NCBI GenBank assembly: GCA_964016885.1
Contig: OZ024748.1
Location: 42,222,001-42,286,000 of the forward strand
DNA: 64,000 nucleotides
DNA from: Eledone cirrhosa
Lineage: Eukaryota
Reading direction: 5' to 3'
In this document: positions 6,301 through 31,022 of the stretch, one piece after another
Position numbering within the stretch: the first letter of the stretch is position 1
Layout: every line of letters starts with the position of its first letter
The notes under the pieces: model-generated
What the model was told of the DNA's origin: nothing
Database searches by the model: none
What the model saw: only the letters and a program-made list of their open reading frames with translations
Translations under genes and position numbers: made by a program

Positions 6301-6429
6301 TATAATAAAGTATTGTATTTTGAGGTGTTTTAACTTCTCCACCTACCCCCTTCCAATTTTTATACTGTTTTTGTAGAAAATAATATATTTTCCATATATG
6401 TGTATATATATGTATATATATATATATAC

Positions 6430-7107: not shown

Positions 7108-7140
<33 letters not shown>

Positions 7141-8374: not shown

Positions 8375-8423
<49 letters not shown>

Positions 8424-8425
<2 letters not shown>

Positions 8426-9506
8426 CTAACTAAGAATATAGATTTTATATGTGGCCAGTGCTCTGGTGCAATAAGTAGCAGCAAATGCCCATACAATACT
8501 AGCTCATTCCATTGCCCAGATGGTTCTATAGAAATAGTGGACACCTTCCGTTACCTGTGTGACAAAATCAGCTGTGGTGGAGGGTGCTCTGAAAGTACAG
8601 TAGCTAGAGTCCGAACGGGATGGAAAAAGTTCAGAGAGCTTATACCACTATTGGCCGCTAAAGGTTTCTCTCTAAAAATGAAAGGCCGACTGTATGATGC
8701 CTGCATACGAACAGCAATGTTACATGGCAGTGAGACTTGGGCATTGTGTGCAGAGGATACGCAGACTGGAGAGGAACGAAGCTTGCATGCTCCATTGGAT
8801 GTGTAATAGTAATATATGTGAACGGCAAAGCATAAATGAACTAAGTGAGAAATTAGGAATAAGAGGGATCAGATGCTGTTTACTCGAGAGAAGACTACGT
8901 TGGTATGGTCACGTGATACGCATGAAAGACGACAGCTGTATAAAAAAGTGCAGGGCGATCAAAATAGACGGTAGCCACGGATTAGGCAGACCCAGAAAAA
9001 CCTGGGATGACTTGATAAAATCCAACCTCACACACTTACACCTCTCCAAGACAATGTCACTGGGCCGAGATCTTTGGCGATACGTAGTAATACAGAAGAC
9101 CCGTCTTGCCTAAGTACAAAGCGAAACCTACTGTCAGTAGGCACCTCTTAACCAAAATAACCCCCCCCCCCCATCCCACTACCCTTACCCCCCACCGCCA
9201 TCTACACAACCCCTTTCGATTGTAAAGCTATGTTGGTACCACAATGTCCAGTCCTAAATAAACGAGGTTGTGTAGCTGTCGCGACAAAAAAAAAAACACA
9301 GTCCACGCTGTAATGTGGCCATGTAGGTAACACGGTAAAAACCTCCCAGTCCACACTGTAAACGTGGTTGGTGTTAGGAAGGGCATCCAGCCATAGAAAA
9401 CCTGCCAGACAGTACTGACCAAGACAACCAATCTTGCCTCAAGTGGGACAATTCCCGTCCAGACCCTTGCTAGTGTGGAAGATGGACGTTAAGCGATGAT
9501 GATGAT
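8424..9506 (+). mobile_element. 5'-truncated, frameshifted RTE-clade LINE
   Basis: FRYL.DKIS, AMLHGSETW, RRLRWYGHVIRM, GRPRKTW motifs; (ATG)n tail. Confidence 0.9.
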
Positions 9507-10096
9507 ATATATTATAAAATGACAGGAGGCTGGACTGGTGTAATTCCTTAAAGATTTATTATACTATAAACATTTCAATGACGGGGTTCAGCATGAATCT
9601 GGTGAGATCATCAGGTATTACGGAATTTATCGAATAAAGAAATATAATAATAGACACAATCCAAGGGGCTCTAAAGTAGATAGAAATGTTTAAGACCTGA
9701 AGGCGGCCAAAATTAGCAGTTGCTTGGTAGATAGGTAGATAGATATCTATATATGTGTGTATAGCAACATAAAATGAGCCAGATATATTCTGTTATGACA
9801 TTGTATAGGCTGTGTTAATAGCTTTTCTCAGATGATTCTTTACAAGATTGGAAGAAGACTTGAGAGTTGTGAATGAGAATGCTGGTAACCATCTTGAGTG
9901 TTGCCAGAGTGTCTTATGTTATCTATGGAGGCGGGATGGTGTGTTATTACAATAACATGTATCACCCCCCCATCCTCCCACCTCAACAAATATTTTATTT
10001 CATTGTTGATGTTGTTGTTGGTCTTGTTGGTGGTGGTGGTGATGTTCGTTTGTTGTTGTTAGTAATGTTGATGGTGTTGATGCTGTTGATTGTGTT

Positions 10097-13000
10097 GGTG
10101 TAAGACCTAGAGAGTTGTTGTAAGACCTAGAGTTGTTGTTGTAAGACCTAGAGTTGTTGTTGTAAGACCTAGAGTTGTTGTTGTAAGACCTAGAGTTGTT
10201 GTTGTAAGACCTAGAGTTGTTGTTGTAAGACCTAGAGTTGTTGGTGTAAGACCTAGAGTTGTTGTTGTAAGACCTAGAGTTGTTGTTGTAAGACCTAGAG
10301 TTGTTGTTGTAAGACCTAGAGTTGTTGTTGTAAGACCTAGAGTTGTTGTTGTAAGACCTAGAGTTGTTGTTGTAAGACCTAGAGTTATTGTTGTAAGACC
10401 TAGAGTTATTGTTGTAAGACCTAGAGTTATTGTTGTAAGACCTAGAGTTATTGTTGTAAGACCTAGAGTTATTGTTGTAAGATCTAGAGTTGTTGTTGTA
10501 AGACCTAGTTATTGTTGTAAGACCTAGAGTTGTTGTTGTAAGACCTAGTTATTGTTGTAAGACCTAGAGTTATTGTTGTAAGACCTAGTTATTGTTGTAA
10601 GACCTAGAGTTGTTGTTGTAAGACCTAGAGTTGTTGTTGTAAGACCTAGAGTTGTTGTTGTAAGACCTAGAGTTGTTGTTGTAAGACCTAGAGTTGTTGT
10701 TGTAAGACCTAGAGTTGTTGTTGTAAGACCTAGAGTTGTTGTTGTAAGACCTAGAGTTGTTGTTGTAAGACCTAGAGTTGTTGTTGTAAGACCTAGAGTT
10801 GTTGTTGTAAGACCTAGAGTTGTTGTTGTAAGACCTAGAGTTGGTGTTGTAAGACCTAGAGTTGGTGTTGTAAGACCTAGAGTTGGTGTTGTAAGACCTA
10901 GAGTTGTTGTTGTAAGACCTAGAGTTGGTGTTGTAAGACCTAGAGTTGGTGTTGTAAGACCTAGAGTTGGTGTTGTAAGACCTAGAGTTGGTGTTGTAAT
11001 ACCTAGAGTTGTTGTTGTAAGACCTAGAGTTGTTGTTGTAAGACCTAGAGTTGTTGTTGTAAGACCTAGAGTTGTTGTTGTAAGACCTAGAGTTGTTGTT
11101 GTAAGACCTAGAGTTGTTGTTGTAAGACCTAGAGTTGTTGTTGTAAGACCTAGAGTTGTTGTTGTAAGACCTAGAGAGTTGTTGTAAGACCTAGAGAGTT
11201 GTTGTAAGACCTAGAGAGTTGTAAGACCTAGAGAGTTGTAAGACCTAGAGAGTTGTTGTAAGACCTAGAGTTGTTGTAAGACCTAGAGTTGTTGTAAGAC
11301 CTAGAGTTGTTGTAAGACCTAGAGTTGTTGTAAGACCTAGAGTTGTTGTAAGACCTAGAGTTGTTGTAAGACCTAGAGTTGTTGTAAGACCTAGAGTTGT
11401 TGTAAGACCTAGAGTTGTTGTAAGACCTAGAGTTGTTGTAAGACCTAGAGAGTTGTTGTAAGACCTAGAGAGTTGTTGTAAGACCTAGAGAGTTGTTGTA
11501 AGACCTAGAGAGTTGTTGTAAGACCTAGAGAGTTGTTGTAAGACCTAGAGAGTTGTTGTAAGACCTAGAGAGTTGTTGTAAGACCTAGAGAGTTGTTGTA
11601 AGACCTAGAGAGTTGTTGTAAGACCTAGAGTTGTTGTAAGACCTAGAGTTGTTGTAAGACCTAGAGTTGTTGTAAGACCTAGAGTTGTTGTAAGACCTAG
11701 AGTTGTTGTAAGACCTAGAGTTGTTGTAAGACCTAGAGTTGTTGTAAGACCTAGAGTTGTTGTAAGACCTAGAGTTGTTGTAAGACCTAGAGAGTTGTTG
11801 TAAGACCTAGAGAGTTGTTGTAAGACCTAGAGTTGTTGTAAGACCTAGAGTTGTTGTAAGACCTAGAGTTGTTGTAAGACCTAGAGTTGTTGTAAGACCT
11901 AGAGTTGTTGTAAGACCTAGAGAGTTGTTGTAAGACCTAGAGAGTTGTTGTAAGACCTAGAGAGTTGTTGTAAGACCTAGAGAGTTGTTGTAAGACCTAG
12001 AGAGTTGTTGTAAGACCTAGAGAGTTGTTGTAAGACCTAGAGAGTTGTTGTAAGACCTAGAGAGTTGTTGTAAGACCTAGAGAGTTGTTGTAAGACCTAG
12101 AGAGTTGTTGTAAGACCTAGAGAGTTGTTGTAAGACCTAGAGAGTTGTTGTAAGACCTAGAGAGTTGTTGTAAGACCTAGAGAGTTGTTGTAAGACCTAG
12201 AGAGTTGTTGTAAGACCTAGAGAGTTGTTGTAAGACCTAGAGAGTTGTTGTAAGACCTAGAGAGTTGTTGTAAGACCTAGAGAGTTGTTGTAAGACCTAG
12301 AGAGTTGTTGTAAGACCTAGAGAGTTGTTGTAAGACCTAGAGAGTTGTTGTAAGACCTAGAGAGTTGTTGTAAGACCTAGAGAGTTGTTGTAAGACCTAG
12401 AGAGTTGTTGTAAGACCTAGAGAGTTGTTGTAAGACCTAGAGTTGTTGTAAGACCTAGAGTTGTTGTAAGACCTAGAGTTGTTGTAAGACCTAGAGTTGT
12501 TGTAAGACCTAGAGAGTTGTTGTAAGACCTAGAGAGTTGTTGTAAGACCTAGAGTTGTTGTAAGACCTAGAGTTGTTGTAAGACCTAGAGTTGTTGTAAG
12601 ACCTAGAGTTGTTGTAAGACCTAGAGTTGTTGTAAGACCTAGAGTTGTTGTAAGACCTAGAGTTGTTGTAAGACCTAGAGTTGTTGTAAGACCTAGAGTT
12701 GTTGTAAGACCTAGAGTTGTTGTAAGACCTAGAGAGTTGTTGTAAGACCTAGTGTTGTTGTAAGACCTAGTGTTGTTGTAAGACCTAGTGTTGTTGTAAG
12801 ACCTAGAGTTGTTGTAAGACCTAGAGTTGTTGTAAGACCTAGAGTTGTTGTAAGACCTAGAGTTGTTGTAAGACCTAGAGTTGTTGTAAGACCTAGAGTT
12901 GTTGTAAGACCTAGAGTTGTTGTAAGACCTAGAGTTGTTGTAAGACCTAGAGTTGTTGTAAGACCTAGAGTTGTTGTAAGACCTAGAGTTGTTGTAAGAC

Positions 13001-16000
13001 CTAGAGTTGTTGTAAGACCTAGAGTTGTTGTAAGACCTAGAGTTGTTGTAAGACCTAGAGTTGTTGTAAGACCTAGAGTTGTTGTAAGACCTAGAGTTGT
13101 TGTAAGACCTAGAGTTGTTGTAAGACCTAGAGTTGTTGTAAGACCTAGAGTTGTTGTAAGACCTAGAGTTGTTGTAAGACCTAGAGTTGTTGTAAGACCT
13201 AGAGTTGTTGTAAGACCTAGAGTTGTTGTAAGACCTAGAGTTGTTGTAAGACCTAGAGAGTTGTTGTAAGACCTAGAGTTGTTGTAAGACCTAGAGTTGT
13301 TGTAAGACCTAGAGTTGTTGTAAGACCTAGAGTTGTTGTAAGACCTAGAGTTGTTGTAAGACCTAGAGTTGTTGTAAGACCTAGAGTTGTTGTAAGACCT
13401 AGAGAGTTGTTGTAAGACCTAGAGAGTTGTTGTAAGACCTAGAGAGTTGTTGTAAGACCTAGAGTTGTTGTAAGACCTAGAGAGTTGTTGTAAGACCTAG
13501 AGAGTTGTTGTAAGACCTAGAGAGTTGTTGTAAGACCTAGAGAGTTGTTGTAAGACCTAGAGAGTTGTTGTAAGACCTAGAGTTGTTGTAAGACCTAGAG
13601 AGTTGTTGTAAGACCTAGAGAGTTGTTGTAAGACCTAGAGAGTTGTTGTAAGACCTAGAGAGGTGTTGTAAGACCTAGAGAGGTGTTGTAAGACCTAGAG
13701 AGGTGTTGTAAGACCTAGAGAGGTGTTGTAAGACCTAGAGAGGTGTTGTAAGACCTAGAGAGGTGTTGTAAGACCTAGAGAGTTGTTGTAAGACCTAGAG
13801 AGTTGTTGTAAGACCTAGAGAGTTGTTGTAAGACCTAGAGAGTTGTTGTAAGACCTAGAGAGTTGTTGTAAGACCTAGAGAGTTGTTGTAAGACCTAGAG
13901 AGGTGTTGTAAGACCTAGAGAGGTGTTGTAAGACCTAGAGAGGTGTTGTAAGACCTAGAGAGGTGTTGTAAGACATAGAGAGGTGTTGTAAGACCTAGAG
14001 TTGTTGTAAGACCTAGAGTTGTTGTAAGACCTAGAGAGTTGTTGTAAGACCTAGAGTTGTTGTAAGACCTAGAGTTGTTGTAAGACCTAGAGAGTTGTTG
14101 TAAGACCTAGAGTTGTTGTAAGACCTAGAGTTGTTGTAAGACCTAGAGTTGTTGTAAGACCTAGAGTTGTTGTAAGACCTAGAGTTGTTGTAAGACCTAG
14201 AGAGTTGTTGTAAGACCTAGAGAGTTGTTGTAAGACCTAGAGAGTTGTTGTAAGACCTAGAGAGTTGTTGTAAGACCTAGAGAGTTGTTGTAAGACCTAG
14301 AGAGTTGTTGTAAGACCTAGAGTTGTTGTAAGACCTAGAGTTGTTGTAAGACCTAGAGTTGTTGTAAGACCTAGAGTTGTTGTAAGACCTAGAGTTGTTG
14401 TAAGACCTAGAGTTGTTGTAAGACCTAGAGTTGTTGTAAGACCTAGAGTTGTTGTAAGACCTAGAGTTGTTGTAAGACCTAGAGTTGTTGTAAGACCTAG
14501 AGTTGTTGTAAGACCTAGAGTTGTTGTAAGACCTAGAGTTGTTGTAAGACCTAGAGTTGTTGTAAGACCTAGAGTTGTTGTAAGACCTAGAGAGTTGTTG
14601 TAAGACCTAGAGTTGTTGTAAGACCTAGAGAGTTGTTGTAAGACCTAGAGTTGTTGTAAGACCTAGAGAGTTGTTGTAAGACCTAGAGTTGTTGTAAGAC
14701 CTAGAGTTGTTGTAAGACCTAGAGTTGTTGTAAGACCTAGAGTTGTTGTAAGACCTAGAGTTGTTGTAAGACCTAGAGTTGTTGTAAGACCTAGAGTTGT
14801 TGTAAGACCTAGAGTTGTTGTAAGACCTAGAGTTGTTGTAAGACCTAGAGTTGTTGTAAGACCTAGAGTTGTTGTAAGACCTAGAGTTGTTGTAAGACCT
14901 AGAGTTGTTGTAAGACCTAGAGTTGTTGTAAGACCTAGAGTTGTTGTAAGACCTAGAGAGTTGTTGTAAGACCTAGAGAGTTGTTGTAAGACCTAGAGAG
15001 TTGTTGTAAGACCTAGAGAGTTGTTGTAAGACCTAGAGAGTTGTTGTAAGACCTAGAGTTGTTGTAAGACCTAGAGAGTTGTTGTAAGACCTAGAGAGTT
15101 GTAAGACCTAGAGTTGTTGTAAGACCTAGAGTTGTTGTAAGACCTAGAGTTGTTGTAAGACCTAGAGTTGTTGTAAGACCTAGAGTTGTTGTAAGACCTA
15201 GAGAGTTGTTGTAAGACCTAGAGAGTTGTTGTAAGACCTAGAGAGTTGTTGTAAGACCTAGAGAGTTGTTGTAAGACCTAGAGAGTTGTTGTAAGACCTA
15301 GAGTTGTTGTAAGACCTAGAGTTGTCGTAAGACCTAGAGAGTTGTTGTAAGACCTAGAGAGTTGTTGTAAGACCTAGAGAGTTGTAAGACCTAGAGTTGT
15401 TGTAAGACCTAGAGTTGTTGTAAGACCTAGAGTTGTTGTAAGACCTAGAGTTGTTGTAAGACCTAGAGAGTTGTTGTAAGACCTAGAGAGTTGTTGTAAG
15501 ACCTAGAGAGTTGTTGTAAGACCTAGAGAGTTGTTGTAAGACCTAGAGAGTTGTTGTAAGACCTAGAGTTGTTGTAAGACCTAGAGAGTTGTTGTAAGAC
15601 CTAGAGAGTTGTTGTAAGACCTAGAGTTGTTGTAAGACCTAGAGTTGTTGTAAGACCTAGAGAGTTGTTGTAAGACCTAGAGAGTTGTTGTAAGACCTAG
15701 AGAGTTGTTGTAAGACCTAGAGAGTTGTTGTAAGACCTAGAGTTGTTGTAAGACCTAGAGTTGTTGTAAGACCTAGAGTTGTTGTAAGACCTAGAGAGTT
15801 GTTGTAAGACCTAGAGAGTTGTTGTAAGACCTAGAGAGGTGTTGTAAGACCTAGAGAGGTGTTGTAAGACCTAGAGTTGTTGTAAGACCTAGAGTTGTTG
15901 TAAGACCTAGAGTTGTTGTAAGACCTAGAGTTGTTGTAAGACCTAGAGAGTTGTTGTAAGACCTAGAGAGTTGTTGTAAGACCTAGAGAGTTGTTGTAAG

Positions 16001-16052
16001 ACCTAGAGAGTTGTTGTAAGACCTAGAGTTGTTGTAAGACCTAGAGTTGTTG
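10097..16052. repeat. 6 kb satellite of 18/20/21 bp units gtaagacctag(ag)agttgtt(gtt)
   Basis: About 300 highly homogeneous copies inside an ECD intron. Confidence 0.98.
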
Positions 16053-16503
16053 TTTACACAAGTTATTATTATTATTAATTGTAGAAGTAATTACTGTAAA
16101 TGTCCAACTTCTTACATTCTACAATAGATAGATATGTGTGTATATAGATGGGTGTGTGTGTAGGTCAGTGTATATATACACACTGTGTGTATGTCAGTGT
16201 ATATATATACACACTGTATGTGTACACATACACACTATATATAACGCATCTCCTCCAATACATTTGAAATCAATATTTGTTCTGCATATTATGGGGTCAG
16301 TTAGAGTTTGGGTGCTGTTGTATTGACTGGAATATGTATGTCTGTGTGTGTACATGTATACACACACAGACATACACAACTATTTGTGTGTATATATATA
16401 ATCATCATCACCATTTAACATCCATTTTACTATGGCAGCATATATACATATATATGGAACTAGCTGTTGAAATGGCAACAGCTCAGCCGTCGGACCCCAA
16501 CTC

Positions 16504-16535
<32 letters not shown>

Positions 16536-16544
16536 CATCATCAT

Positions 16545-16878
16545 TTCATTTTACGTCTGCTTTTCCCTGCTTGCAAGGGGGGGGGGGGGGGGGAACGGGA
16601 ACTGATTCTGGCTTGATTTCTCCAGCTGGATGCTCTTCCTAACACCAACCTCATTTACAGTGAGTGCTGGGTGCTTTTTTGCCGTGGCACCTCCACGACC
16701 ACTTTGCAGTGGAATGATAGGGACCCCAGTCCCTATCATCTCATTTCTACAGCTGAGTAAACTGGAACAATGTGAAATAAAGTCTCTTGCTCAAGGAAAC
16801 AACACATCACCAGGTCTGAGAATTGAACTCACAACCTTTCGATTGCAAAGCTCTAACCACTAAGCCATGTGCCTCCAT
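16545..16878 (-). mobile_element. SINE family B
   Basis: Near-identical inverted copy of 2236-2720. Confidence 0.85.
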
Positions 16879-16964
16879 CACATAAATATAAATGGAAAAG
16901 AATGAAATGAAATTTCATTTCTCACTCTTAGTACGGCTGATACCTAAATATAAGTATGAATACT

Positions 16965-17056
16965 TACATACATATATGTGTACAGACGTACAGTAGTATG
17001 TATATATATATACATACTACTGTACGTCTGTACACATATGTGTGTGTATATATATA

Positions 17057-17087
<31 letters not shown>

Positions 17088-17478
17088 ATATGTGTGTGTG
17101 TGTATGTGTGTGTGTGTGTATATATATATATGTGTGTGTATATATATGTGTGTGTATATATATATATATGTGTATGTGTGTGTGTATAAGTGTGTGTGTG
17201 TGTATGTATATATGTGCGTGTGTGTGTGTGTGTATATAAATGTGTGTATATATATGTGTGTATATATGTGTGTGTGTGTATATATGTGCGTACGTGTGTG
17301 TATATATGTGCGTACGTGTGTGTATATATGTGCGTACGTGTGTATGTGCGTGTGTGTGTGTATGTGCGTGTGTGTGTGTGTGTATATATATGTGTATGTG
17401 TGTGTGTATGTGTGTATATATATGTGTATGTGTGTGTGTATATATATGTGTATGTGTGTGTGTGTGTGTATATATATC
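16965..17478. repeat. (TG)n/(TA)n microsatellite field
   Basis: Directly visible. Confidence 0.95.
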
Positions 17479-18024
17479 AAAATGAAAATCCGAAGGCAAG
17501 GTAAAATTCCAATCATTTAATCACGACACGTTTCAATAAGAGATAGATCGATTGTGAAGCCATGATCGATTATCACTGATCTCACCAGGTGAAAATGAAT
17601 TGTCTTCAAATTCTTGATATGAGGGAGAAAATATAACGATGTTCTCTCACAGAATTCATTCCCTCATATGGAGACACACCACTCAGTCAGAGACATGGCG
17701 ACTGCTATTAGCTTTAGTTGAGGTCATAAAAGTTTTCAGATTTCTCTCGCTGCAAAAGACGCTGGACATCAATCAAATCCGTAGGGATACAGTCAGTCAC
17801 AGTTAAAGCGAGTGGGTACACACACACTCCACACCCACACACAGCGGCTCGAGGTCAAAGAAAAATATATACAGATATAGACACACATCAACACAGTATT
17901 AAACCTGGAGAGCCAGTGTGGGTGGGTACACACACACTTTCACCGAAGCGATGTCCGAGAAAAAACAAATATAAGAATGTACCAACACAGCACTCCCCGA
18001 AAGTTAGTTCACAAAGCGATTGTG

Positions 18025-18055
<31 letters not shown>

Positions 18056-18088
18056 ATGTGTGTGTGTGTGTGTATATATATATATGTG

Positions 18089-18127
<39 letters not shown>

Positions 18128-18610
18128 GGAGGCACATGGCTTAGTGGTTAGAGCATTGGCCTTGCAATCGAAAGGTTGTGAGTTCAATTCTCAGACCGGG
18201 TGATGTGTGTTTTCTAAATTTAAGACAGTAGGGAGAGGTGTGATATGGGGGAGAGTTAGCTGCTGTTTCTAGCAGGTTTATTCCGAGTTCCTAAAGGAAG
18301 TTTGTAAGGAAGGGGTTTAAGCGTATATAAGAGAAAGTTGCAGCATGTATGTAGCTTTATCGAATTTTAAGGGGAGTAGAAAGAGGAAATTAAATTGCAT
18401 TAGAGGGGTAAAGCATCATGTATTTAGTTTTATCGATTATTTCTGTAATTGTGGGTGAGTTGAAAAAAATAAATAGTCGTTGACCTAAGTTAAACCATTT
18501 ACAACATTCTTACAGACTTTGAGTCGAATCGGTTTGAAATTGTGCAAATGTATAAACATGGAACATGCACACACACACACACCACAACAATCTGCCTTTT
18601 ATAGATAATG

Positions 18611-18641
<31 letters not shown>

Positions 18642-19051
18642 TACATACGTGTGTATGTGTGTGTTTTCTCACTCTCCCAATATTGATCCTTAAGGAATTC
18701 TACCAATCAATTCAACCAATCAATTCAATACAACCATTGTAAACCATGGTCAGTAAACTCTGACCAATAACTTATTTACTGAAAACAATGAGAACCAGTA
18801 GCTTTGTTTGGTGGTGTGACTGTGGTGGTGGTGGTGACTGGTGGTGATGGGGACAATATCAGGATGTAGTAGCAGTAGAGGTGGTGGTAGCAGTAGTAGT
18901 AGAGGTGGTGGTAGTAGTAGTAGAGGTGGTAGTGTTAGTAGAAGTAGTAGAGGTGGTGGTAGTAGTAAAGGTGGTGGTAGCAGTAGTAGTAGTAGTCATA
19001 GTTAAAATTAATATATATTATATTGTGTTAGAAATGACTGTTTTGCCCTCC

Positions 19052-19241
19052 TTTAGTGGATTCCCAGTATCGGTAGAGGGTCGGACGCCTTGCTTTGATG
19101 CATAGAGTTACGGCCCTTGCCATTCTGAGTTCAAATCCCACCGAGGTTAACTTTGCCTTTCATCCTTACAGGGTCGATAAAATAAAGTACCAGTAATGTA
19201 CTGGGTAATTGCTGGCCTCGTGCCAAAAGTAGAAACAATTA
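19052..19241 (+). mobile_element. SINE family A
   Basis: Match to other copies. Confidence 0.8.
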
Positions 19242-19312
19242 TTTAATAAAACTTAACTCAGTGATAAATGTCTGATTTTTTTTTTTAATGGTTTCTGTAA
19301 TGTTTTTTCCAG

Positions 19313-19400
19313 AGTTAGTGACAATGATGAAGAGTTTCTTCTCATTGAGGCAGCCGATGTCCTTCCTGAATGGCTTAATCCTACCACTTCTGAGAACAGA
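19313..19400 (+). CDS. ECD: ECD exon
   Basis: ttttccag|A ... AGA|gtaaga; VSDNDEEFLLIEAADVLPEWLNPTTSENR matches the DNDGEFLLIEAA motif; phase fits the previous exon across a 17.8 kb intron. Confidence 0.93.
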
Positions 19401-19472
19401 GTAAGATATCTTTATATTTCTGAGAACTGAGTCTTTATATTACATTTGGTGGCTGTCATTTCTCATAAGAAG

Positions 19473-19700
19473 TTCTTCTTCTTCTCCTCCGACTCATACC
19501 TGAGAGGGTTATGGAAGTCAGAGTCCTCAAACGTTCCCTCCAGTGGGTCCTGTCAGAAACAACTGTCTCCAACTGATCCAGTTGGATTCCCATGAGAAAG
19601 ACCAGCCAAGCTCATGGATGTGATCCAACCATCTTGCTCGGGGTCTACCCCTGGGTCTCTTGCCGGTTGGTTTTGCCTGTAAAATCTGTCCAGTTATTTT
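19473..19700 (-). mobile_element. RTE-like LINE 3' fragment, second family, (GAA)n tail
   Basis: KPTGKRPRGRPRARWLD; a second copy at ~49943-50170. Confidence 0.75.
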
Positions 19701-19704
19701 TTCA

Positions 19705-19728
19705 GACACACAAACACAAACGCACGCA

Positions 19729-19760
<32 letters not shown>

Positions 19761-20190
19761 CACACACTCACACACTCACTCACTCACTCACTCACTCACT
19801 CACTCACTCACTCACTCACTCACTCACTCACTCACTCACAGATACTCACTCACTCACACACACACACACAGATACTCACTCACTCACACACACACACAGA
19901 TACTCACTCACTCACTCACACACACACAGATACTCACACACACAGATACTCACTCACTCACACACACACACAGATACTCACTCACTCACACACACACACA
20001 GATACTCACTCACTCACACACACACACAGATACTCGCTCACACACACACACAGATACTCACTCACTCACTCACACACAGATACTCACTCACTCACACACA
20101 CACACACACACACACACACAGATACTCACTCACACACACACACACACACACAGATACTCACACACACACAGATACATACACACACACACG
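19705..20190. repeat. (CA)n/(CACT)n/cagatact compound repeat
   Basis: Directly visible. Confidence 0.95.
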
Positions 20191-20267
20191 CTGTTGTTTC
20201 TAATGAGTATTCTAATAGTATCACACACAAATGGCTGACCATCTTCCTTATATTAACATTTTTTCAG

Positions 20268-20446
20268 ATATTGATTAAAGATGGTGAACTACATATAATA
20301 CCAATGCCAACAACCTCCAAAGATTTAGATTGGTTACCATTGTTTACACCAACTCTTAAAGAAGCAATTCAAGCCATACATCAGCATTCCAGTGAAACTA
20401 TTGCATCACCAGGAATACAGAAGGTCATAAAACAGCGACTAGAGTG
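20268..20446 (+). CDS. ECD: ECD exon
   Basis: ttttcag|ATA ... TG|gtaagt; ILIKDGELHIIPMP...IQKVIKQRLE. Confidence 0.9.
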
Positions 20447-20870
20447 GTAAGTTATTTTAACAGTGACTAGAATAGTTATTTTTAACAGTTTAACAGTGAT
20501 TAGAATAGTTATTTTTAACATCGACTAGAACAGTTATTTTTAACAGTTTAACAGTGATTAGAATAGTTATTTTTAACATCGACTAGAACAGTTATTTTTA
20601 ACAGTTTAACAGTGATTAGAATAGTTATTTTTAATAGTTTAACAGTGGCTGTAATAGTTATTTTTAATAGTTTAGCTGTTTAACAATGACTAGAATATTT
20701 ATTTTTAACAGTTTAACAAACTATAATAGTTATTTTTAACATTTTACAACAACTAGAATGGTTATTTTTAATAGTTTAGCAGTGACTATAATAGTTATTC
20801 TTAACAGTGACTAGAGTAGTTATTTTTAATAGTTTAACAGTGACTATAATAGTTATTTTTAATAGTTTAA
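20430..20870 (+). repeat. Degenerate tandem repeat beginning in the exon end/donor
   Basis: aacagcgactagagtggtaagttatttt followed by copies of aacagtgactagaatagttattttt. Confidence 0.85.
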
Positions 20871-21023
20871 GAGAGAGAGAGAGAGAGAGATCACTGTTAG
20901 CAGAGAACATTTTTGACAGATCTTCCTAGCAGTTGTGTGACAGACTGACTAAAAGGCTGTATATACTAGAATCTCGATTCCACATTTCCCAGAAATAAAT
21001 GAAATAATAATTTATCTTTGCAG

Positions 21024-21165
21024 TTACCCAGAGAAAATTACAAAAGACTTTCACTCCGCCTATTGTTATATTCCTGCTGGTTTAGCTGCAGCTTTAACAC
21101 AACGTCCGTCTCTTATAGCTGCTGGTGTTAATGCCTTTTATTACAGAACTCCTGAGGATTTGAAG
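21024..21165 (+). CDS. ECD: ECD exon
   Basis: tttgcag|T ... AAG|gtcagt; YPEKITKDFHSAYCYIPAGLAAALTQRPSLIAAGVNAFYYRTPEDLK. Confidence 0.92.
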
Positions 21166-21384
21166 GTCAGTCTAACCCTTTTTGTTACTGTATTACTAGT
21201 TAAGGGCCAGTTTAACCCCTTTTGTTACTGTATTATCAGTGAAGGGAGAGTCTAACTCGTTTTGTTACTGTATTACTAGTGTCTTGGGATATTTAGGTTT
21301 TTAGCATAAGATCTGGGAGATTATCAGAATACTGGGCTAATCTGTTCAGTTACTTATTGATGTTTTTTCGGGGTTATTTTTCAG

Positions 21385-21435
21385 GCTTGTCGCTCCTTCC
21401 GTTATTTTCGTCCAGGAACAAGAGTGATGACTCTG
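21385..21435 (+). CDS. ECD: ECD exon
   Basis: ttttcag|GCT ... CTG|gtaagt; ACRSFRYFRPGTRVMTL. Confidence 0.88.
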
Positions 21436-21615
21436 GTAAGTTATATTTTCTCTATTTTCTGGTATAATGTCCATTTTCCCTGTTATCCCTGATTCACAAA
21501 TGTTGATCTGTTGTCCATGAAGAACTAGGGTTGACCTCCTCGAGATATTTGGAAAAAAAATCTAAAATTTTGGGTGCAAAAAATGAGTCAACTTTTAAAG
21601 GAATTTATGTGGTAA

Positions 21616-21995
<380 letters not shown>

Positions 21996-22079
21996 TATTT
22001 ATTTCTTCTGCACAAAATTATTTTTTACTTCAAAACAATTACTGTACATTCTAATGTATAAGTTGATTTTATCTTCTAG

Positions 22080-22217
22080 GCTCATGGTTTTGAAATCCTT
22101 TGTTCCAAGTGTAGAAATCCTAACCTTCAAAATGGAGAAAATAATGCCAACAAGAACATACCTGATGTTAGATTGGAGCGGTTTATATCAACGCTCACTG
22201 ATAAAGGATACTTTAAG
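22080..22217 (+). CDS. ECD: ECD exon
   Basis: ttctag|GCT ... AAG|gtgagt; AHGFEILCSK...FISTLTDKGYFK. Confidence 0.92.
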
Positions 22218-22785
22218 GTGAGTTGACATATTCTTGCTTAACAGGATTCAGCGAACATTTTACTTGAAAATGGCTTTCAGTCTCTTATTTCCACCATTTT
22301 AATACCTACCCACCAAACACCAACCATGTCTGGTTCATTAAACAAACCACCCATTAAACAAATCACCCCTTAAATAAACCACCCATTAAATAAACCACCA
22401 ATTAAACAAACCACCCATTAAATAAACCACAAATTACCCCTCCCCCCCACACAAACCACCCATTAAACAAACTGCCCATTTTAAAAGGTTCCTGTTTAAA
22501 TTTAAATCTTCAAACATAATTATATATTAGAATAATGGAGTGGTCACACACACATACAGTGGTCACACACACATCTAAAGTGGTCACACTGTTGTCAGAC
22601 ATCTACTTTTGTCACACACATCTACTGTGGTCACACAAACCATGTTTGGAATGATCAGACCCTGAGTTAAACAACAACCTCCTGGCTATCTTTGAGGAGG
22701 GAACAAAAGCCCTACAATTAAGTTTTGATATTTCTACTAAACTATTTCCTTTCATCTTGTAATTTTATTGTTTTTATGTTTTCAG

Positions 22786-22871
22786 GGAGAACTTGAAGGG
22801 TCACTGCTCTACAATGAGAATTTGGAGAAAGCAAAACAATATTTCAAAGACAATCTTGATCACACTCCCTG
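22786..22871 (+). CDS. ECD: ECD exon
   Basis: ttttcag|GGA ... TG|gtaatt; GELEGSLLYNENLEKAKQYFKDNLDHTP. Confidence 0.9.
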
Positions 22872-22889
22872 GTAATTCTATTTTAACAC

Positions 22890-23830
22890 TACCATTTACA
22901 TTACTCTATATATACTATTGTATTCTCATGGTAAAGGCTTTACCTCGCATAATATCTCACATAACATTCACATTACTCTATATATACTATTGTATTTTCA
23001 CAGTAAAGGCTTTACCTCACATAATATCTCACATAATATTTACATTACTCTATATTTACTATTGTATTTTCACAGTAAAGGCTTTACCTCACATAACATT
23101 TACATTACTCTATATATACTATTGTATTTTTACAGTAAAGGCTTTACCTCACATAATATCTCACATAACATTCACATTACTCTATATATACTATTGTATT
23201 TTCACAGTAAAGGCTTTACCTCACATAATATCTCGCATAACATTTACATTACTCTATATTTACTATTCTATTTTCACAGTAAAGGCTTTACCTCACATAT
23301 CTCACATAATATTTACATTACTCTATATATACTATTGTATTTTCATAGTAAAGGCTTTACCTCACATAATATTCACATAACATTTACATTACTCTATATA
23401 TACTATTGTATTTTCACAGTAAAGGCTTTACCTCACATAATATCTCGCATAACATTTACATTACTCTATATATACTATTGTATTTTCACAGTAAAGGCTT
23501 TACCTCAAATAATATCTCACATAACATTTACATTACTCTATATATACTATTGTATTTTCACAGTAAAGGCTTTACCTCACATAATATCTCACATAACATT
23601 TACATTACTCTATATATACTATTGTATTTTCACAGTAAAGGCTTTACCTCAAATAATATCTCACATAACATTTACATTACTCTATATATACTATTGTATT
23701 TTCACAGTAAAGGCTTTACCTCACATAATATCGCACATATCGGAACTGAGATTTTGATATTTACTTTGAGAACAATATCTTAACATCAGTATGAGTGGCC
23801 GGTTACAGCTGGTTTGAACAGAAAGAGGTG
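22890..23830 (+). repeat. ~70 bp tandem repeat amplified inside a MITE
   Basis: The unit tttacattactctatatatactattgtattttcacagtaaaggctttacctcacataa is the body of the element at 43961-44167 and 63951-64000. Confidence 0.9.
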
Positions 23831-23836
23831 CTATTA

Positions 23837-24112
23837 TGCTGTTATTATGTCTTATACAGTACCACATGGTGTTATGTCTTACATGTTATGTCTTATACAG
23901 TACCACATGGTGTTGTGTTACATGTTATGTCTTATACAGTACACATGGTGTTATGTCTTACATGTTATGTCTTATACAGTACCACATGGTGTTATGTGTT
24001 ACATGTTATGTCCTATACAGTACCACATGGTGTTATGTGTTACATGTTATGTCTTATACAGTACCACATGGTGTTATGTGTTACAACATGTTATGTCTTA
24101 TACAGTGACACA
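23837..24112 (+). repeat. ~40 bp tandem repeat containing the ECD splice acceptor
   Basis: gttatgtcttatacag recurs about 7 times; the last copy is the true acceptor. Confidence 0.92.
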
Positions 24113-24209
24113 GAACAGTTGGGGCAAACAATGCTAGATTTAATTCACCAGACTCCTTACAGTATTGAGGAACTGCGGCTCCAAGAAGCGATACTCTCAC
24201 CAGAAGATG
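24106..24209 (+). CDS. ECD: ECD exon
   Basis: tatacag|T ... G|gtaaaa; DTEQLGQTMLDLIHQTPYSIEELRLQEAILSPED; phases fit both neighbours. Confidence 0.85.
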
Positions 24210-24665
24210 GTAAAAGAATTCTTTTATATTTGACATTTTAAAAACTTCATTGATCCTCTTTATTGTTGTAATCCTTTATGGGGACATTGCAATTAAACCC
24301 TTTTGTGATATTTCCAATAAAATACATTCTATCTCAATTAATGAATAATTTTGGGAGATTTATTAAAATTATTATTTCATTACTAAGATAACTTAACATG
24401 TGGTTCTTATATAAAATTATGTTGGAATATTTTAATATAAATAGTAACTCTGTAAAATGGGTGGGTTTTTTTTCATAAAACCAGGGCAGAGCTAGTGTGA
24501 AAAGGGTCAAATAAGAACACTTTAAAATGGGTGTTTTTTGTTTCGCAGAACCAGAGACATTTTTGGCTGGGTTGGTATCTAAAGAGTTAATGTTATTAAT
24601 ATCTTCATAAATAATTGACATATTCCACATTTGTGCATTTATAACATGTAATTTTGTATCAGTAA

Positions 24666-26577
24666 GTTAGTACACAAAAGTTGACACTTTAATATAAGGT
24701 CTATCTTTTATAGATGACTCTTAGCTGTTAGTCCACAAGAAGTTGACACTTTAATATAAGGTCTATCTTTTATAGATGACTCTTGGCTGTGTTAGTCCAC
24801 AAGAAGTTGACAGTTTAATATAAGGTCTATCTTTTATAGATTACTCTTGGCTGTGTTAGTCCACAAGAAGTTGACAGTTTAATATAAGGTCTATCTTTTA
24901 TAGATGACTCTTAGCTGTGTTAATCCACAAGAAGTTGACACTTTAATATAAGGTCTATCTTTTATAGTTGACTCTTAGCTGTGTTAGTCCACAAGGAGTT
25001 GACATTTTAATATAAGGTCTATCTTTTATAGATGACTCTTGGCTGTGTTAGTCCACAAGGAGTTGACACTTTAGTATAAGGTCTCTTTTATAGTTGACAC
25101 TTTAATATAAGGTCTAGCTTTTATAGATGACTCTTAGCTGTGTTAGTCCACAAGAAGTTGACACTTTAATATAAGGTCTATCTTTTATAGATGACTCTTA
25201 GCTGTGTTAGTCCACAAGAAGTTGACACTTTAATATAAGGTCTATCTTTTATAGTTGACTCTTAGCTGTGTTAGTCCACAAGGAGTTGACACTTTAGTAT
25301 AAGGTCTATCTTTTATAGATGACTCTTGGCTGTGTTAGTCCACAAGAAGTTGACAGTTTAATATAAGGTCTATCTTTTATAGATTACTGTTGGCTGTGTT
25401 AGTCCACAAGGAGTTGACACTTTAGTATAAGGTCTCTTTTATAGTTGACACTTTAATATAAGGTCTAGCTTTTATAGATGACTCTTAGCTTTGTTAGTCC
25501 ACAAGAAGTTGACACTTTAATATAAGGTCTATCTTTTATAGATGACACTTTAATATAAGGTCTATCTTTTATAGTTGACTCTTAGCTGTGTTAGTCCACA
25601 AGGAGTTGACACTTTAATATAAGGTCTATCTTTTATAGTTGACTCTTAGCTGTGTTAGTCCACAAGGAGTTGACACTTTAGTATAAGGTCTATCTTTTAT
25701 AGTTGACTCTTAGCTGTGTTAGTCCACAAGGAGTTGACATTTTAGTATAAGGTCTATCTTTTATAGATGACTCTTAGCTGTGTTAGTCCACAAGGAGTTG
25801 ACACTTTAGTATAAGGTCTCTTTTATAGTTGACACTTTAATATAAGGTCTAGCTTTTATAGATGACTCTTAGCTTTGTTAGTCCACAAGAAGTTGACACT
25901 TTAATATAAGGTCTATCTTTTATAGATGACACTTTAATATAAGGTCTATCTTTTATAGTTGACTCTTAGCTGTGTTAGTCCACAAGGAGTTGACACTTTA
26001 ATATAAGGTCTATCTTTTATAGTTGACTCTTAGCTGTGTTAGTCCACAAGGAGTTGACACTTTAGTATAAGGTCTATCTTTTATAGTTGACTCTTAGCTG
26101 TGTTAGTCCACAAGGAGTTGACATTTTAGTATAAGGTCTATCTTTTATAGATGACTCTTGGCTGTGTTAGTCCACAAGGAGTTGACACTTTAGTATAAGG
26201 TCTAGCTTTTATAGATGACTCTTAGCTTTGTTAGTCCACAAGAAGTTGACACTTTAATATAAGGTCTATCTTTTATAGATGACTCTTGGCTGTGTTAGTC
26301 CACAAGAAGTTGACAGTTTAATATAAGGTCTATCTTTTATAGATGACTCTTGGCTGTGTTAGTCCACAAGAAGTTGACAGTTTAATATAAGGTCTATCTT
26401 TTATAGATGACTCTTGGCTGTGTTAGTCCACAAGAAGTTGACAGTTTAATATAAGGTCTATCTTTTATAGATGACTCTTGGCTGTGTTAGTCCACAAGAA
26501 GTTGACAGTTTAATATAAGGTCTATCTTTTATTGTACAGATGACTCTTGGTTGTATGTTAGTCCACAAGAAGTTGAT
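24666..26577 (+). repeat. 64 bp tandem repeat containing the ECD acceptor and exon start, about 30 copies
   Basis: Unit tttaatataaggtctatcttttatag|atgactcttggctgtgttagtccacaagaagttgacag versus exon ATGACTCTTGGTTGTATGTTAGTCCACAAGAAGTTGA. Confidence 0.96.
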
Positions 26578-26708
26578 GCTATGATTTTGAAAGCTGGTGG
26601 TAAAGATCCCTCGAAATGTGAAAAGTCTTTTGATGTAAATCAAGTATCAAACAGTATGAGATCTTTCGTGGAAACAATCTCAGACTATGAAGGAGCAGAA
26701 TTTCCAAA
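26540..26708 (+). CDS. ECD: ECD exon
   Basis: ttgtacag|AT ... AA|gtaagt; DDSWLYVSPQEVDAMIL...MRSFVETISDYEGAEFP. Confidence 0.92.
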
Positions 26709-26879
26709 GTAAGTAATTTTTATCTGCTACTGTATATTGGCTGTGACCTGGAGAAGAGATGGGCTCCAACAGATTAAAAATATGCCCTAGAAACGACATA
26801 TGTCAATACACCACCCCTACGACTCCCTTAGCAGTTACGGGACCATAAATATTGACAGCATTTGTTTTGGTTCTCTACA

Positions 26880-27517
26880 TTTCTGAGTTCAATTCCCACC
26901 AAGGTCAACTTTGTCGTTCATCCTTCTGGAGTCGATAAAATAAAGTATGAGTTGTCCCGCTGTGAGAAAGTCAGATCAGATGACCGTGTCTTGCTCATAC
27001 AGAACTGGTTTTGGCTTGGTTTTTATTGCTGGATGCCTCATGCCAACCACTTTATAGTGTGTACTGGGTACTTTTTACCACGTCACCAGCACAACCACAT
27101 TACAGTGTGGACTGGGTACTTTTTGCCATGTCACCAGCACAACCACATTACAGTGTGGACTGGGTACTTTTTACCATGTCACCAGCACAACCACATTACA
27201 GTGTGGACTGGGTACTTTTTACCATGTCACCAGCACAACCACATTAGTGTGGACTGGGTACTTTTTACCATGTCACCAGCACAACCACATTACAGTGTGG
27301 ACTGGGTACTTTTTACCATGTCACCAGCACAACCACATTACAGTGTGGACTGGGTACTTTTTTCCATGTCACCAGCACAACCACATTAGTGTGGACTGTT
27401 TACTTTTTACCATGTCACCAGCACAACCACATTACAGTGTGGACTGGGTACTTTTTACCATGTCACCAGCACAACCACATAACAGTGTGGAAAGTAGACA
27501 TAAAACGATGATGATGA
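26880..27517. repeat. SINE A fragment plus RTE/SINE tail containing a 48 bp tandem array
   Basis: Unit actgggtactttttaccatgtcaccagcacaaccacattacagtgtgg, about 9 copies at 27055-27490. Confidence 0.85.
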
Positions 27518-27540
27518 GAAATTATTGTCTTATTTTACAG

Positions 27541-27608
27541 AGAATGTTTGGAAGATGATATCAACTTTGATTCCACTGGATTTATTCACGCCATGAATAA
27601 AACATTTG
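27541..27608 (+). CDS. ECD: ECD exon
   Basis: ttttacag|A ... G|gtaagt; ECLEDDINFDSTGFIHAMNKTF. Confidence 0.88.
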
Positions 27609-28159
27609 GTAAGTTTGATTTATTGATTTATTCTGTTTAGGGAAATCACAAATTTGTGTAGGAGTGGAGGGGAAGAGTTGTTTCAATTAACACCAGTACA
27701 TGACTGGTACTGATACTTATTAATCTCGTTAAACTAATTAAACTGTGGCCATGCATTTCCCTTACTGCCTTAACACTTAATGTCCTGTACCACACGAAAC
27801 CACATTAGCTAGACATTCTTGAAAAGTACAAAACAACTCCATGACTGCATCAACATTAAAATTAAAATTCATTTCTGTAATACTGCAAATTTTCACAACC
27901 TGTCCACTAGTAAAGATACTATTAACATTTGAATTAACAAACCTCATTAGCAATACATTCTTGAAAAGTAGAAAACAACACTATGACTGCATCACATTAA
28001 AGATTAAAGTCTTCAGTTTAATACAACAAATTTTCACAACGATCTGTCTACAAGTGAAGATACTATAAATATTTGAATTAATAAACCACATGAAGCCACA
28101 TTAGCAAGACATTCTTGAAATGTATAAAACTGCATTACGACTGCATCTCATTGTAAATT

Positions 28160-28348
28160 GGCGGTGGATTGGCAGTATCGGTAGAGAGTCGGACGCCATG
28201 CATTGACGCATAGTTACGGCCCTTGCCATTCTGAGTTCAAATCCTGCCGAGGTTAACTTTGCCATTCATCCTTACGGGTTCGATAAAATAAAGTACCAGT
28301 AATACACTGGGGTAATTGCTGGCCTTGTGCCTAAAGTAGAAACAATTA
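28160..28348 (+). mobile_element. SINE family A
   Basis: Full-length copy inserted within a degenerate tandem duplication. Confidence 0.8.
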
Positions 28349-28511
28349 TAAATTAAAGTCTTTAAATATTCTAGATGCTCATAATGATCCATCTACTAGT
28401 AAAGATACTATAAATATTTGAATTAACAAACCTGTTTATAAATCATATTTCTGTTAAATTATTAGAGGATGTTGAGAATTAATAAGATTTTCATTTGTGT
28501 TATTTTGGTAG

Positions 28512-28693
28512 AATTTGAAGAAAGCTGTTCTGATAGCAGCTCAGAAATGGATGAATATGATTGGAACTCTTCAGATGAAGACACTTCTAGAACCAGCTCC
28601 AATTCCAGAAGTGAAATAAAAGGTTACATTAAAGCAATGGATCAGGAATTATCAAAGACAACATTAGGCAAAAGTTTTGAATATTCAAATAAA
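28512..28693 (+). CDS. ECD: ECD exon (acidic region)
   Basis: ttggtag|AA ... AAA|gtaagt; EFEESCSDSSSEMDEY...YIKAMDQELSKTTLGKSF. Confidence 0.88.
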
Positions 28694-28857
28694 GTAAGTT
28701 TCCTGTAAAACAATAATCACCATATGTGTGATAGTGTATATGATAGACTGGTGTCTTGTCCAGGGGGAGTATTCTACTCTCAGTCGCTTAACACCATGGA
28801 AACCGGGATAAGCACCGGCCTGATGAGCTTTCAGTCTTCAGACAAACTTTAGAGATA

Positions 28858-30455
28858 TGATACTAGCTAGTCAAGCTTGTACTGTATGGTAGTAAGCTAT
28901 GGGTACTAGCTAGTCAAGCTTGTACTGTATGGTAGTAAGCTATGGGTACTAGCTAGTCAAGCTTGTACTGTATGGTAGTAAGCTATGGGTACTAGCTAGT
29001 CAAGCTTGTACTGTATGGTAGTAAGCTATTGATACTAGCTAGTCAAGCTTGTACTGTATGGTAGTAAGCTATGGGTACTAGCTAGTCAAGCTTGTACTGT
29101 ATGGTAGTAAGCTATGGGTACTAGCTAGTCAAGCTTGTACTGTATGGTAGTAAGCTATGGGTACTAGCTAGTCAAGCTTGTACTGTATGGTAGTAAGCTA
29201 TGGGTACTAGCTAGTCAAGCTTGTACTGTATGGTAGTAAGCTATGGGTACTAGCTAGTCAAGCTTGTACTGTATGGTAGTAAGCTATGGGTACTAGCTAG
29301 TCAAGCTTGTACTGTATGGTAGTAAGCTATGGGTAATAGCTAGTCAAGCTTGTACTGTATGGTAGTAAGCTATGGGTACTAGCTAGTCAAGCTTGTACTG
29401 TATGGTAGTAAGCTATGGGTACTAGCTAGTCAAGCTTGTACTGTATGATAGTAAGCTATGGGTACCTGCTAGTCAAGCTTGTACTGTATGGTAGTAAGCT
29501 ATTGATACTAGCTCGTCAAGCTTGTACTGTATGGTAGTAAGCTATTGACATTAGCTAGTCAAGCTTGTACTGTATGGTAGTAAGCTATTGATATTAGCTA
29601 GTCAAGCTTGTACTGTATGGTAGTAAGCTATTGATATTAGCTAGTCAAGCTTGTACTGTATGGTAGTAAGCTATGGGTACTAGCTAGTCAAGCTTGTACT
29701 GTATGGTAGTAAGCTATGGGTACTAGCTAGTCAAGCTTGTACTGTATGGTAGTAAGCTATTGATACTAGCTAGTCAAGCTTGTACTGTATGGTAGTAAGC
29801 TATGGGTACTAGCTAGTCAAGCTTGTACTGTATGGTAGTAAGCTATGGGTACTAGCTAGTCAAGCTTGTACTGTATGGTAGTAAGCTATGGGTACTAGCT
29901 AGTCAAGCTTGTACTGTATGGTAGTAAGCTATGGGTACCTGCTAGTCAAGCTTGTACTGTATGGTAGTAAGCTATTGATACTAGCTCGTCAAGCTTGTAC
30001 TGTATGGTAGTAAGCTATTGACATTAGCTAGTCAAGCTTGTACTGTATGGTAGTAAGCTATTGATATTAGCTAGTCAAGCTTGTACTGTATGGTAGTAAG
30101 CTATTGATATTAGCTAGTCAAGCTTGTACTGTATGGTAGTAAGCTATGGGTACTAGCTAGTCAAGCTTGTACTGTATGGTAGTAAGCTATGGGTACTAGC
30201 TAGTCAAGCTTGTACTGTATGGTAGTAAGCTATTGATACTAGCTAGTCAAGCTTGTACTGTTTGGTAGTAAGCTATTGATACCAGCTAATCAAGCTTGTA
30301 CTGTTTGGTAGTAAGCTATTGATACCAGCTAATCAAGCTTGTACTGTTTGGTAGTAAGCTATTGATACCAGCTAATCAAGCTTGTACTGTATGGTAGTAA
30401 GCTATGGGTACTAGCTCGTCAAGCTTGTACTGTAGGGTAGTGAGCTATTGATACA
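28858..30455. repeat. 43 bp tandem repeat, about 37 copies
   Basis: Unit tactagctagtcaagcttgtactgtatggtagtaagctatggg. Confidence 0.97.
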
Positions 30456-30674
30456 AATTGTGAGTAATAGTCTGTTTGATTCTACCAACTGATAGCTGTT
30501 AGAAAGGTTTGGTCCTTCTGTCAACATTTATACACAGTTAACCTGTATTGTACGAAACTGCTTGAAACCCACTGCTATTATAATAAATAGCTGTTTGTTT
30601 TGATCTAAGAATCTTCTAGAATTATGTAGATATTTTTGGATGAAATTCTAACGAAACACTGATATATTTTACAG

Positions 30675-31022
30675 AGAAGCAAACCACCACGGCCACCTCC
30701 TCCTCAAAAGTTTTCGCAGACTTCACCAAAGAAAAGCATCGCCCCAGAACGATCTCCACCACCATCAAAGGTAGAAGAAGTCCCTCCAGTACAGTCTGTG
30801 CCTCTTAATGGGTCCAACCAATCACCTGATGACATAGATGATGAAGATGAAGGATTTAGGCCTGTTAATATAGATGTCAATGTTGTGAAGAACCTTCTAG
30901 CTTCCCACAATATTAACCCAGGTCAGCCTGGACCAGCTACTAATATATTGTCTTCAATGGGGGTAGATCTTCACCAAGGCAAAAAGAAAGAGATGTGTAT
31001 GAATCGAGCTGGAAGCAAGTAA
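30675..31022 (+). CDS. ECD: ECD terminal coding exon
   Basis: tttacag|AGA; Pro-rich linker then FRPVNIDVNVVKNLLASHNINPGQPGPATNILSSMG; TAA at 31020-31022 followed by AATAAA. Confidence 0.9.
   Translation, partial: RSKPPRPPPPQKFSQTSPKKSIAPERSPPPSKVEEVPPVQSVPLNGSNQSPDDIDDEDEGFRPVNIDVNVVKNLLASHNINPGQPGPATNILSSMGVDLHQGKKKEMCMNRAGSK

Follow-up and report, generated by a model that had tools for sequence, protein, structure and literature searches.

The window analysed here is a 64,000-nucleotide stretch of the 3.0-Gb genome of Eledone cirrhosa, and the contig that carries it measures 60.6 Mb. On its plus strand, at 1398..31022, lie 13 coding exons that join into one open frame; the first coding exon of the same gene lies about 20 kb upstream of the exon that starts at 1398. 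Matches to the Pfam family SGT1 (PF07093) fall in order in eight of the ten exons scanned, seven of them above the curated cut-off. The protein totals 666 residues and is 89% identical to ecdysoneless (ECD) of Octopus sinensis; across full-length Octopus ECD proteins the identity is 88-89%, and with Argonauta it is 83%. By these matches, the host gene is ecdysoneless (ECD) of an octopod, a gene described as encoding an assembly factor of the U5 snRNP (PMC7897482). In the compact part of ECD, seven tandem arrays fill about half of its 11 introns.

The array of main interest lies at the border of an intron and an exon. The exon upstream of it, 24106..24209 in the gene model, ends in phase 1 at a donor between 24209 and 24210, and its end matches the loose 5' end of a spliced contig. 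The 169-nt exon downstream, 26540..26708, opens with DDSWLY, scores E 3.2e-10 against SGT1, and is covered by a contig over 26539-26708; it is 91% identical to the 'protein ecdysoneless homolog' of O. sinensis and 84% identical to that of Argonauta hians. At 24666..26576 (plus strand) sits a minisatellite of mostly 64-bp units (TRF period 64, about 30 units, 17 unit types). In each unit, the last ~27 nt of the intron are joined to a copy of the exon's initial ~37 nt; in full units the exon-start part is 2 nt short and the intron-end part 5 nt short. The array carries 31 copies of the acceptor TTTTATAG, 26 of them followed by a 62-69-nt unit whose opening 33-35 nt replicate the first 37 nt of the exon, and five by a truncated unit of 33 nt. 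Against the exon start, all 26 full units are missing 2 nt, and the first is missing 4. The alignment of the exon's first 37 nt to the upstream intron scores 58, against a maximum of 25 in 1500 null trials. The preliminary description, which had recognized about 30 decoy acceptors in 64-bp units built on the exon start and full decoys lacking 2 nt, is borne out on these points. The native intron end, with the acceptor in use, occupies 26509..26539; it exceeds the decoy form by 5 nt (that description, too, called it longer) and reads CTATCTTTTATTGTACAG, with four T and not the five given there.

The interior of the array bears marks of turnover. An exact higher-order duplication occupies 25393..26159, with 383 identical bases at an offset of 384. 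Along the array the unit types run ABCDEFGHHIBJ GKLMINO GKLMINP KBBBQ, and this order together with the 384-base repeat is the pattern that recent unequal exchange or slippage would leave; on instability of length between alleles or cells, the duplication bears at most indirectly. Units adjoining the exon are among those closest to it, with one substitution against up to four in mid-array. A genome search with the last unit plus the exon, in which one candidate region was scored, returned at least 26 matches, all at the ECD locus.

Other identities for the array were considered and rejected. A dispersed element does not fit the genome matches, all of which fall at the ECD locus in the one candidate region scored. 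An assembly artefact does not fit the depth in a DNA-like run, where summed contig depth is 151-354 over the array and 7.8 over the unique exon; this ratio is not a copy number, and the run is possibly the assembly's own sample. A coding repeat on either strand does not fit a longest open stretch of 38 residues in six frames. Intronic polyadenylation on the sense strand is rejected by the lack of AATAAA or ATTAAA on the array's plus strand. The minus strand of the array holds ATTAAA 23 times and AATAAA once.

Read in the phase set by the upstream exon, every decoy (31/31) runs into a stop no more than five codons past the split codon, which upholds the preliminary report of early stops. Of the two readings that it gave, DDSWLC-stop holds exactly for only eight of the 31 copies, and DDS-stop is found in eight as well; the others are VDS-stop (8), VDTLI-stop (3), DDTLI-stop (2), DYSWLC-stop (1), and DYCWLC-stop (1). 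Every phase closes inside one unit, after at most 15, 5, and 13 codons. Units shuffled in 20,000 trials meet a stop within one unit in 79% of cases and within three copies in 99.9%. Among the other intronic YAG sites of ECD (n = 975), 76% meet a stop within 21 codons and 36% within five; the decoys stop earlier than this average, in a comparison weakened by the fact that the 31 copies are not independent. As inherited copies, the 31 stops trace back to some three events, namely the 2-nt loss, a single TGG-to-TAG change (present in 16 of the 26 full units), and the short unit. Neither the 2-nt loss nor the TGG-to-TAG change is needed for a stop, because an unaltered duplicate would already read ...EVDSLI-stop, using a TAA in the native intron tail. 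The stops show no design; their frequency is that of chance, and none of the three frames stays open. The array itself is far beyond chance, and the stops in it are not.

On paper, from the gene model, use of a decoy would place a stop upstream of three exon junctions, and the earlier view of decoy-spliced RNA as a decay substrate is correct to that extent. Upon this view the preliminary description built its proposal of a copy-number-dependent poison switch or U2AF sink. As a selected switch, the array would sense the fidelity of 3' splice-site choice and route ECD mRNA to nonsense-mediated decay, thereby exerting feedback, with copy number as the tuner, on a U5 snRNP assembly factor. Such assembly factors belong to a gene class in which unproductive splicing is common, and the universal early stops, three junctions downstream of them, and the spread of the TGG-to-TAG change through the full units are what such a switch would use. 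The role of the host in splicing (PMC7897482) points the same way; the main text of that source has 0 matches for 'autoregul', 'poison exon', or 'nonsense-mediated'. Against the switch stand the stops themselves, which are at chance level, lie in all frames, and pre-exist in the native intron tail. Poison exons are typically conserved in sequence, whereas this array turns over fast. A stop upstream of a later junction, present on paper and at chance level, is the only feature of a poison exon that the array has, and it is the trivial one.

Splice-site strength offers little to tell the decoys from the true site. On crude matrices, built from 12 of ECD's own sites each in place of a standard scorer, the true acceptor at 26540 scores 8.7, and 13 true acceptors span 1.9 to 13.2. 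The decoys score 9.3 (16 copies), 8.0 (8), 5.9 (3), and 5.8 (4). Decoys at 5.8-9.3 are not clearly weaker than a true site at 8.7, contrary to a hint in the preliminary description, and the longer native acceptor is not clearly stronger. Since the decoys score like the true site, the choice between them likely rests on nearness to the exon's donor. Paired with the donor at 26708, the true acceptor gives an exon of 169 nt, and the last decoys would give exons of 238, 302, 366 nt, and more.

The units also contain a weak donor-like site, AAG/GTCTAT, which had been reported as a feature of each unit. It occurs 25 times exactly and in seven variants; it is inherited, not made by the array, because the native intron end has it too. 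Its score of 2.3 falls below the 4.5-11.3 of 12 true donors and is reached by 17% of background GT sites. With an acceptor and a GT 49 nt later in each unit, one could imagine that the copies bind acceptor factors as a U2AF sink, are cut stepwise by recursive splicing, or enter as 49-nt exons through AAG/GTCTAT. We regard this family of ideas as extremely improbable. The GT site, which a sizeable share of background sites equals, carries T at +4, a position that is A in 12 of 12 true donors; none of CAGGT, TAGGT, GTAAG, or GTGAG occurs inside the array, and on this motif search recursive splicing is rejected. The 15 nt from the internal GT to the next AG are below a workable intron size, and cassettes would have to contend with the 38-residue limit on open stretches in the six frames. 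As a sink, 31 weak sites would be negligible against the acceptor pool of the cell.

Transcript evidence comes from eight runs, all in the form of contigs and none on record as RNA. Run X5 is from the same species, and X1 and X2 are from a relative. We take X5 as RNA-like only because its contig is spliced, and it may share the assembly's study; the relative, which differs at 13 of 170 letters, is known from contigs in which the intron is not seen. The read comparison covered 26455-26830 and 1265-1538, with one or two units each. In X5, a contig of 1997 nt (depth 46.5, no mismatch) has donor 24209 precisely spliced to acceptor 26540; it covers 26539-26708, preceded by the last part of the upstream exon and followed by the first part of the next one. 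Two contigs of the relative (X1, X2) show the same junctions. At the array junctions, six octopod ECD proteins of full or nearly full length run colinear, with no insertion; a seventh entry, a fragment of 68 residues, is uninformative for junctions.

In the stretch 26455-26830, no X5 contig links a decoy to the upstream exon. A single X5 contig lies on a decoy; it consists of 94 nt of array sequence at depth 5.5 and continues into the array, where its words are present 4-11 times. This amounts to about one read-equivalent per copy and fits unspliced background. Among the loose ends listed, none falls at a decoy acceptor, and the depth table allows only the 94-nt contig there. The junction check proposed in the preliminary description, from donor 24209 into the array, returns 26540 and no decoy junction, for contigs and hence for the main product; the alternative offered in that description, an array simply passed over by exon definition, agrees with these results. 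Rare forms are lost from contigs, and a product of decoy splicing would be thinned further by decay, so the evidence concerns the main product and not exclusive use. Regular splicing is observed for the main transcript, and a low-level leak is compatible with the contig data.

ECD provides internal controls in the form of sister arrays. The first, at 1047..1415 (plus strand; TRF, 57 bp x 6.5), spans the acceptor of the exon at 1398-1515. Its decoys at 1284 and 1341, the two nearest to the exon at 1398, are in frame and free of stops, and the nearest differs from the true acceptor at one base in the 17 upstream. The match of the 1997-nt X5 contig begins here at the true acceptor (1397), with the upstream exon before it, and this array is bypassed. 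Over 1265-1538, the in-frame decoys gave no X5 contig; X3 and X4 have no contig there and are uninformative. The second sister array, at 23845..24106 (plus strand; TRF, 41 bp x 6.4), holds six acceptor copies of the exon at 24106; of these decoys, those at 23860 and 23980 keep the frame and contain no stop. An internal offset of 1035 in the X5 contig equals the exact summed length of the nine exons between, which means that no decoy was used at any array over that span. The four stop-free, in-frame decoys would only add residues and so would not trigger nonsense-mediated decay, yet they are absent from the X5 contig. The spliceosome passes over good decoys with or without stops, and no other observation weighs as heavily against a poison design or in favor of the innermost site being chosen.

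With stop-free decoys in the sister arrays and no decoy inclusion seen in contigs, the selected poison switch is very unlikely, and the preliminary proposal of a copy-number-dependent switch or U2AF sink finds no support in chance-level stops, a contig that uses 26540, and bypassed stop-free sister decoys. A related idea, to which we give as little credence, would make the array a fast-evolving fidelity sensor: looser 3' splice-site choice would bring the nearest decoys into use, ECD mRNA would decay, and allele length would set the gain. The decoy junction is absent from the X5 contigs, which miss minor forms, and contigs are uninformative on such a sensor because its predicted product is rare and degraded. 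If true, it would be a case of unproductive-splicing control drawn from a hypermutable minisatellite, not from an ultraconserved exon.

A leaky, non-adaptive array is an unlikely alternative of greater weight. The nearest decoys, with exons of 238 and 302 nt, would see slight use, increasing with copy number, and long alleles would lose some ECD mRNA to decay, at a mild cost. Decoys that score like the true acceptor, and exons of ordinary size from the last two of them, would allow this, and two human loci lend it weight. In intron 7 of human F7, the first unit of a 37-bp VNTR spans the exon-intron boundary, and the pseudo-sites are identical, functional, and silent, coming into use once the authentic site is removed (PMC1557585). 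The length of a VNTR in intron 18 of human ABCA7 tracks exon skipping and lower expression (review PMC6660495), which makes this intronic VNTR beside exons a model for copy-number effects on splicing. The parallels have limits. The site adjoining the exon wins in F7 (PMC1557585), as it does in the ECD transcript found; the F7 repeat is on the donor side and was tested in 50 constructs, whereas that of ECD is on the acceptor side and is known from sequence and contigs. For ABCA7 a length effect was measured, and the unit is not described as a copied acceptor in the available part of that review; for ECD no length effect is shown. Against a leak, no contig joins the upstream exon to a decoy, the one X5 contig on a decoy continues into the array, and X5 has no contig on the in-frame decoys of the 57-bp array. 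Added copies would also lie ever further from the donor, and copy number should matter little past the first two or three.

We favor a simpler account, to which we assign a probability of about 0.8: the array is a tandem repeat of the ECD intron end and exon start, likely derived from one local duplication across the acceptor, followed by ordinary minisatellite turnover; the transcript found takes only the innermost acceptor; and the array is probably near-neutral. A duplication of ~70 bp across the acceptor would have put a spare copy in the intron, with the reading frame intact as long as the inner site was used. Losses of 2 nt and 5 nt in an early copy could then have spread to all units, and slippage or unequal exchange would have raised the number to 31. 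Pairing with a donor across the exon favors the nearest acceptor, and cross-exon pairing with the donor at 26708 would pick the site that yields the 169-nt exon; the weak internal GTCTAT site would be unable to define a 49-nt pseudo-exon. Any rare decoy product would presumably be cleared by nonsense-mediated decay as a by-product, not as regulation. A search for papers on duplicated splice sites with proximity and exon definition for acceptors found none. The points against a neutral reading are the early stops, a host that is a U5 assembly factor, the ABCA7 length effect, the array contig in X5, RNA evidence in the form of contigs, and matrices of 12 sites.

Arrays of this kind have been described in other animals. 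In the amphioxus globin BflGb6, tandem duplications of an intron's 3' end together with the 5' portion of the exon that follows are called 'mirages', a name given after Adh3; AG and GT are kept, and splicing is regular (PMC3087553). PGBD5 has the same type of mirage in amphioxus, with Adh and troponin C cited alongside (PMC3902484), so that the cases named in these sources are the globins BflGb6 and BflGb9, Adh3, troponin C, and PGBD5 (PMC3087553, PMC3902484). Like the amphioxus mirages, the ECD array is a tandem minisatellite that spans an exon-intron boundary of its host and keeps the splice signals (PMC3087553), and splicing of the main transcript is undisturbed here too (junction 24209-26540). 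Of five features of a mirage, among them instability of length between alleles or cells, four are found in ECD, namely tandem repetition, span of the boundary, splice signals, and regular splicing. The differences from BflGb6 are of number and lineage: 31 copies against 3-6, and an octopod, not a cephalochordate.

The second counterpart is the 'exon stuttering' of avian dot chromosomes (Hron et al. 2026), described for 236 chicken introns (PMC12954441). There the exon part measures 20-187 bp (median 36), copies number 1-44, and the span has a median of 1,751 bp (PMC12954441); the ECD array, with about 35 bp, 26 copies, and 1.9 kb, lies within these ranges. In both, an exon edge and the splice site on it have expanded locally into the adjacent intron, neighboring introns are full of unrelated local repeats, and the origin is strictly local, which in ECD is seen in the at least 26 genome matches, all at the locus. 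A further mark of exon stuttering is wide variation in length within a species (PMC12954441). Unlike exon stuttering, the ECD array lies in AT-rich DNA (about 32% GC; 0.32 at 24001-26000) on a 60.6-Mb contig and not on a GC-rich dot chromosome, a setting that is an association of exon stuttering, not strictly part of its definition. Its authors report the phenomenon only from birds and from GC-rich genes of the gerbil (PMC12954441). The ECD array belongs to this known kind, the amphioxus mirage and the bird exon stutter, with a human parallel too, and is likely tolerated clutter, not an off switch; PMC3087553, PMC3902484, and PMC1557585 are precedents with intact splicing. A search of the literature on octopus, minisatellite, intron, and splice site together found only a general review, which is weak evidence that the octopod case may be unreported.

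ECD also holds arrays on the donor side. One, at 20450..20870 (plus strand), copies the end of the exon at 20268-20446; its alignment score is 25, a null score of 24 is reached in 0.4% of alignments, and no copy has a strong donor motif. Another, of 40 bp x 3 at 21161..21281 (plus strand), starts in the last 5 nt of the exon at 21024-21165, and its copies lack GT. The strong donor motif is lost in the copies of all three donor-side duplications (19401-19450, 20447-20870, and 21166-21281), and YAG is kept in the copies of all three acceptor-side arrays (1047-1415, 23845-24106, and 24666-26576). This asymmetry, in small numbers, is a hint that this animal purges surplus donors and tolerates surplus acceptors.

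On its own, the ECD array matters little; it is one more minisatellite at a splice boundary. Its value lies in the setting. With three acceptor arrays (one bearing stops, two with stop-free decoys) and two donor arrays, all ignored by the main transcript, ECD, an essential gene, is a natural experiment. It offers a compact test of how a mollusc spliceosome settles on the innermost among many equivalent acceptors, and in it site choice can be told apart from decay. Hosted by a U5 assembly factor and provided with stop-free controls, the array is neat as a test case but unsurprising. The occurrence of the exon-stuttering pattern in an AT-rich, large, chromosome-scale contig also speaks against a link to GC-rich dot chromosomes (PMC12954441).

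Arrays were counted for enrichment at splice sites with period >=15, copies >=2.5, score >=100, and a complexity filter. In the whole ECD gene, 5 of 18 arrays touch a splice site against 0.87 expected (Poisson P 0.002; about 0.01 without the focal array); in the compact part, 4 of 7 do so against 1.9 expected (P 0.12). We do not claim that splice sites seed arrays, because the enrichment depends on two introns of great length and ECD was a post hoc choice. A screen for 24-mers that straddle junctions found one of 25 boundaries, that of the 57-bp array; it missed the focal array through its deletions, and its background is swamped by repeats.

Further repeats lie in the ECD introns and beyond. 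A 5.9-kb satellite at 10094-16046, in an intron of 17.8 kb, has a unit of 18-20 bp in ~310 copies that are 97% alike, with a strong G skew. An array at 27044-27491 (48 bp x 9.4) ends 50 nt before an exon edge, and another at 28861-30448 (43 bp x 37) starts 168 nt after one. A 72-bp array at 22893-23739 begins 22 nt after the donor at 22871 and resembles, by eye, a dispersed element with further copies at 39512-39645 (minus strand), 41308-41444 (minus strand), and 43960-44150; by eye, some arrays appear to grow out of mobile-element sequence instead of exon edges. Elsewhere in the window, 8480-9110 (plus strand) and 53760-54810 (minus strand) look by eye like candidate 3' fragments of LINE-type retroelements, and 44400-45560 and 55590-55650 (minus strand), whose edges resemble donors and acceptors to the eye, are possible exons of a second, minus-strand gene.
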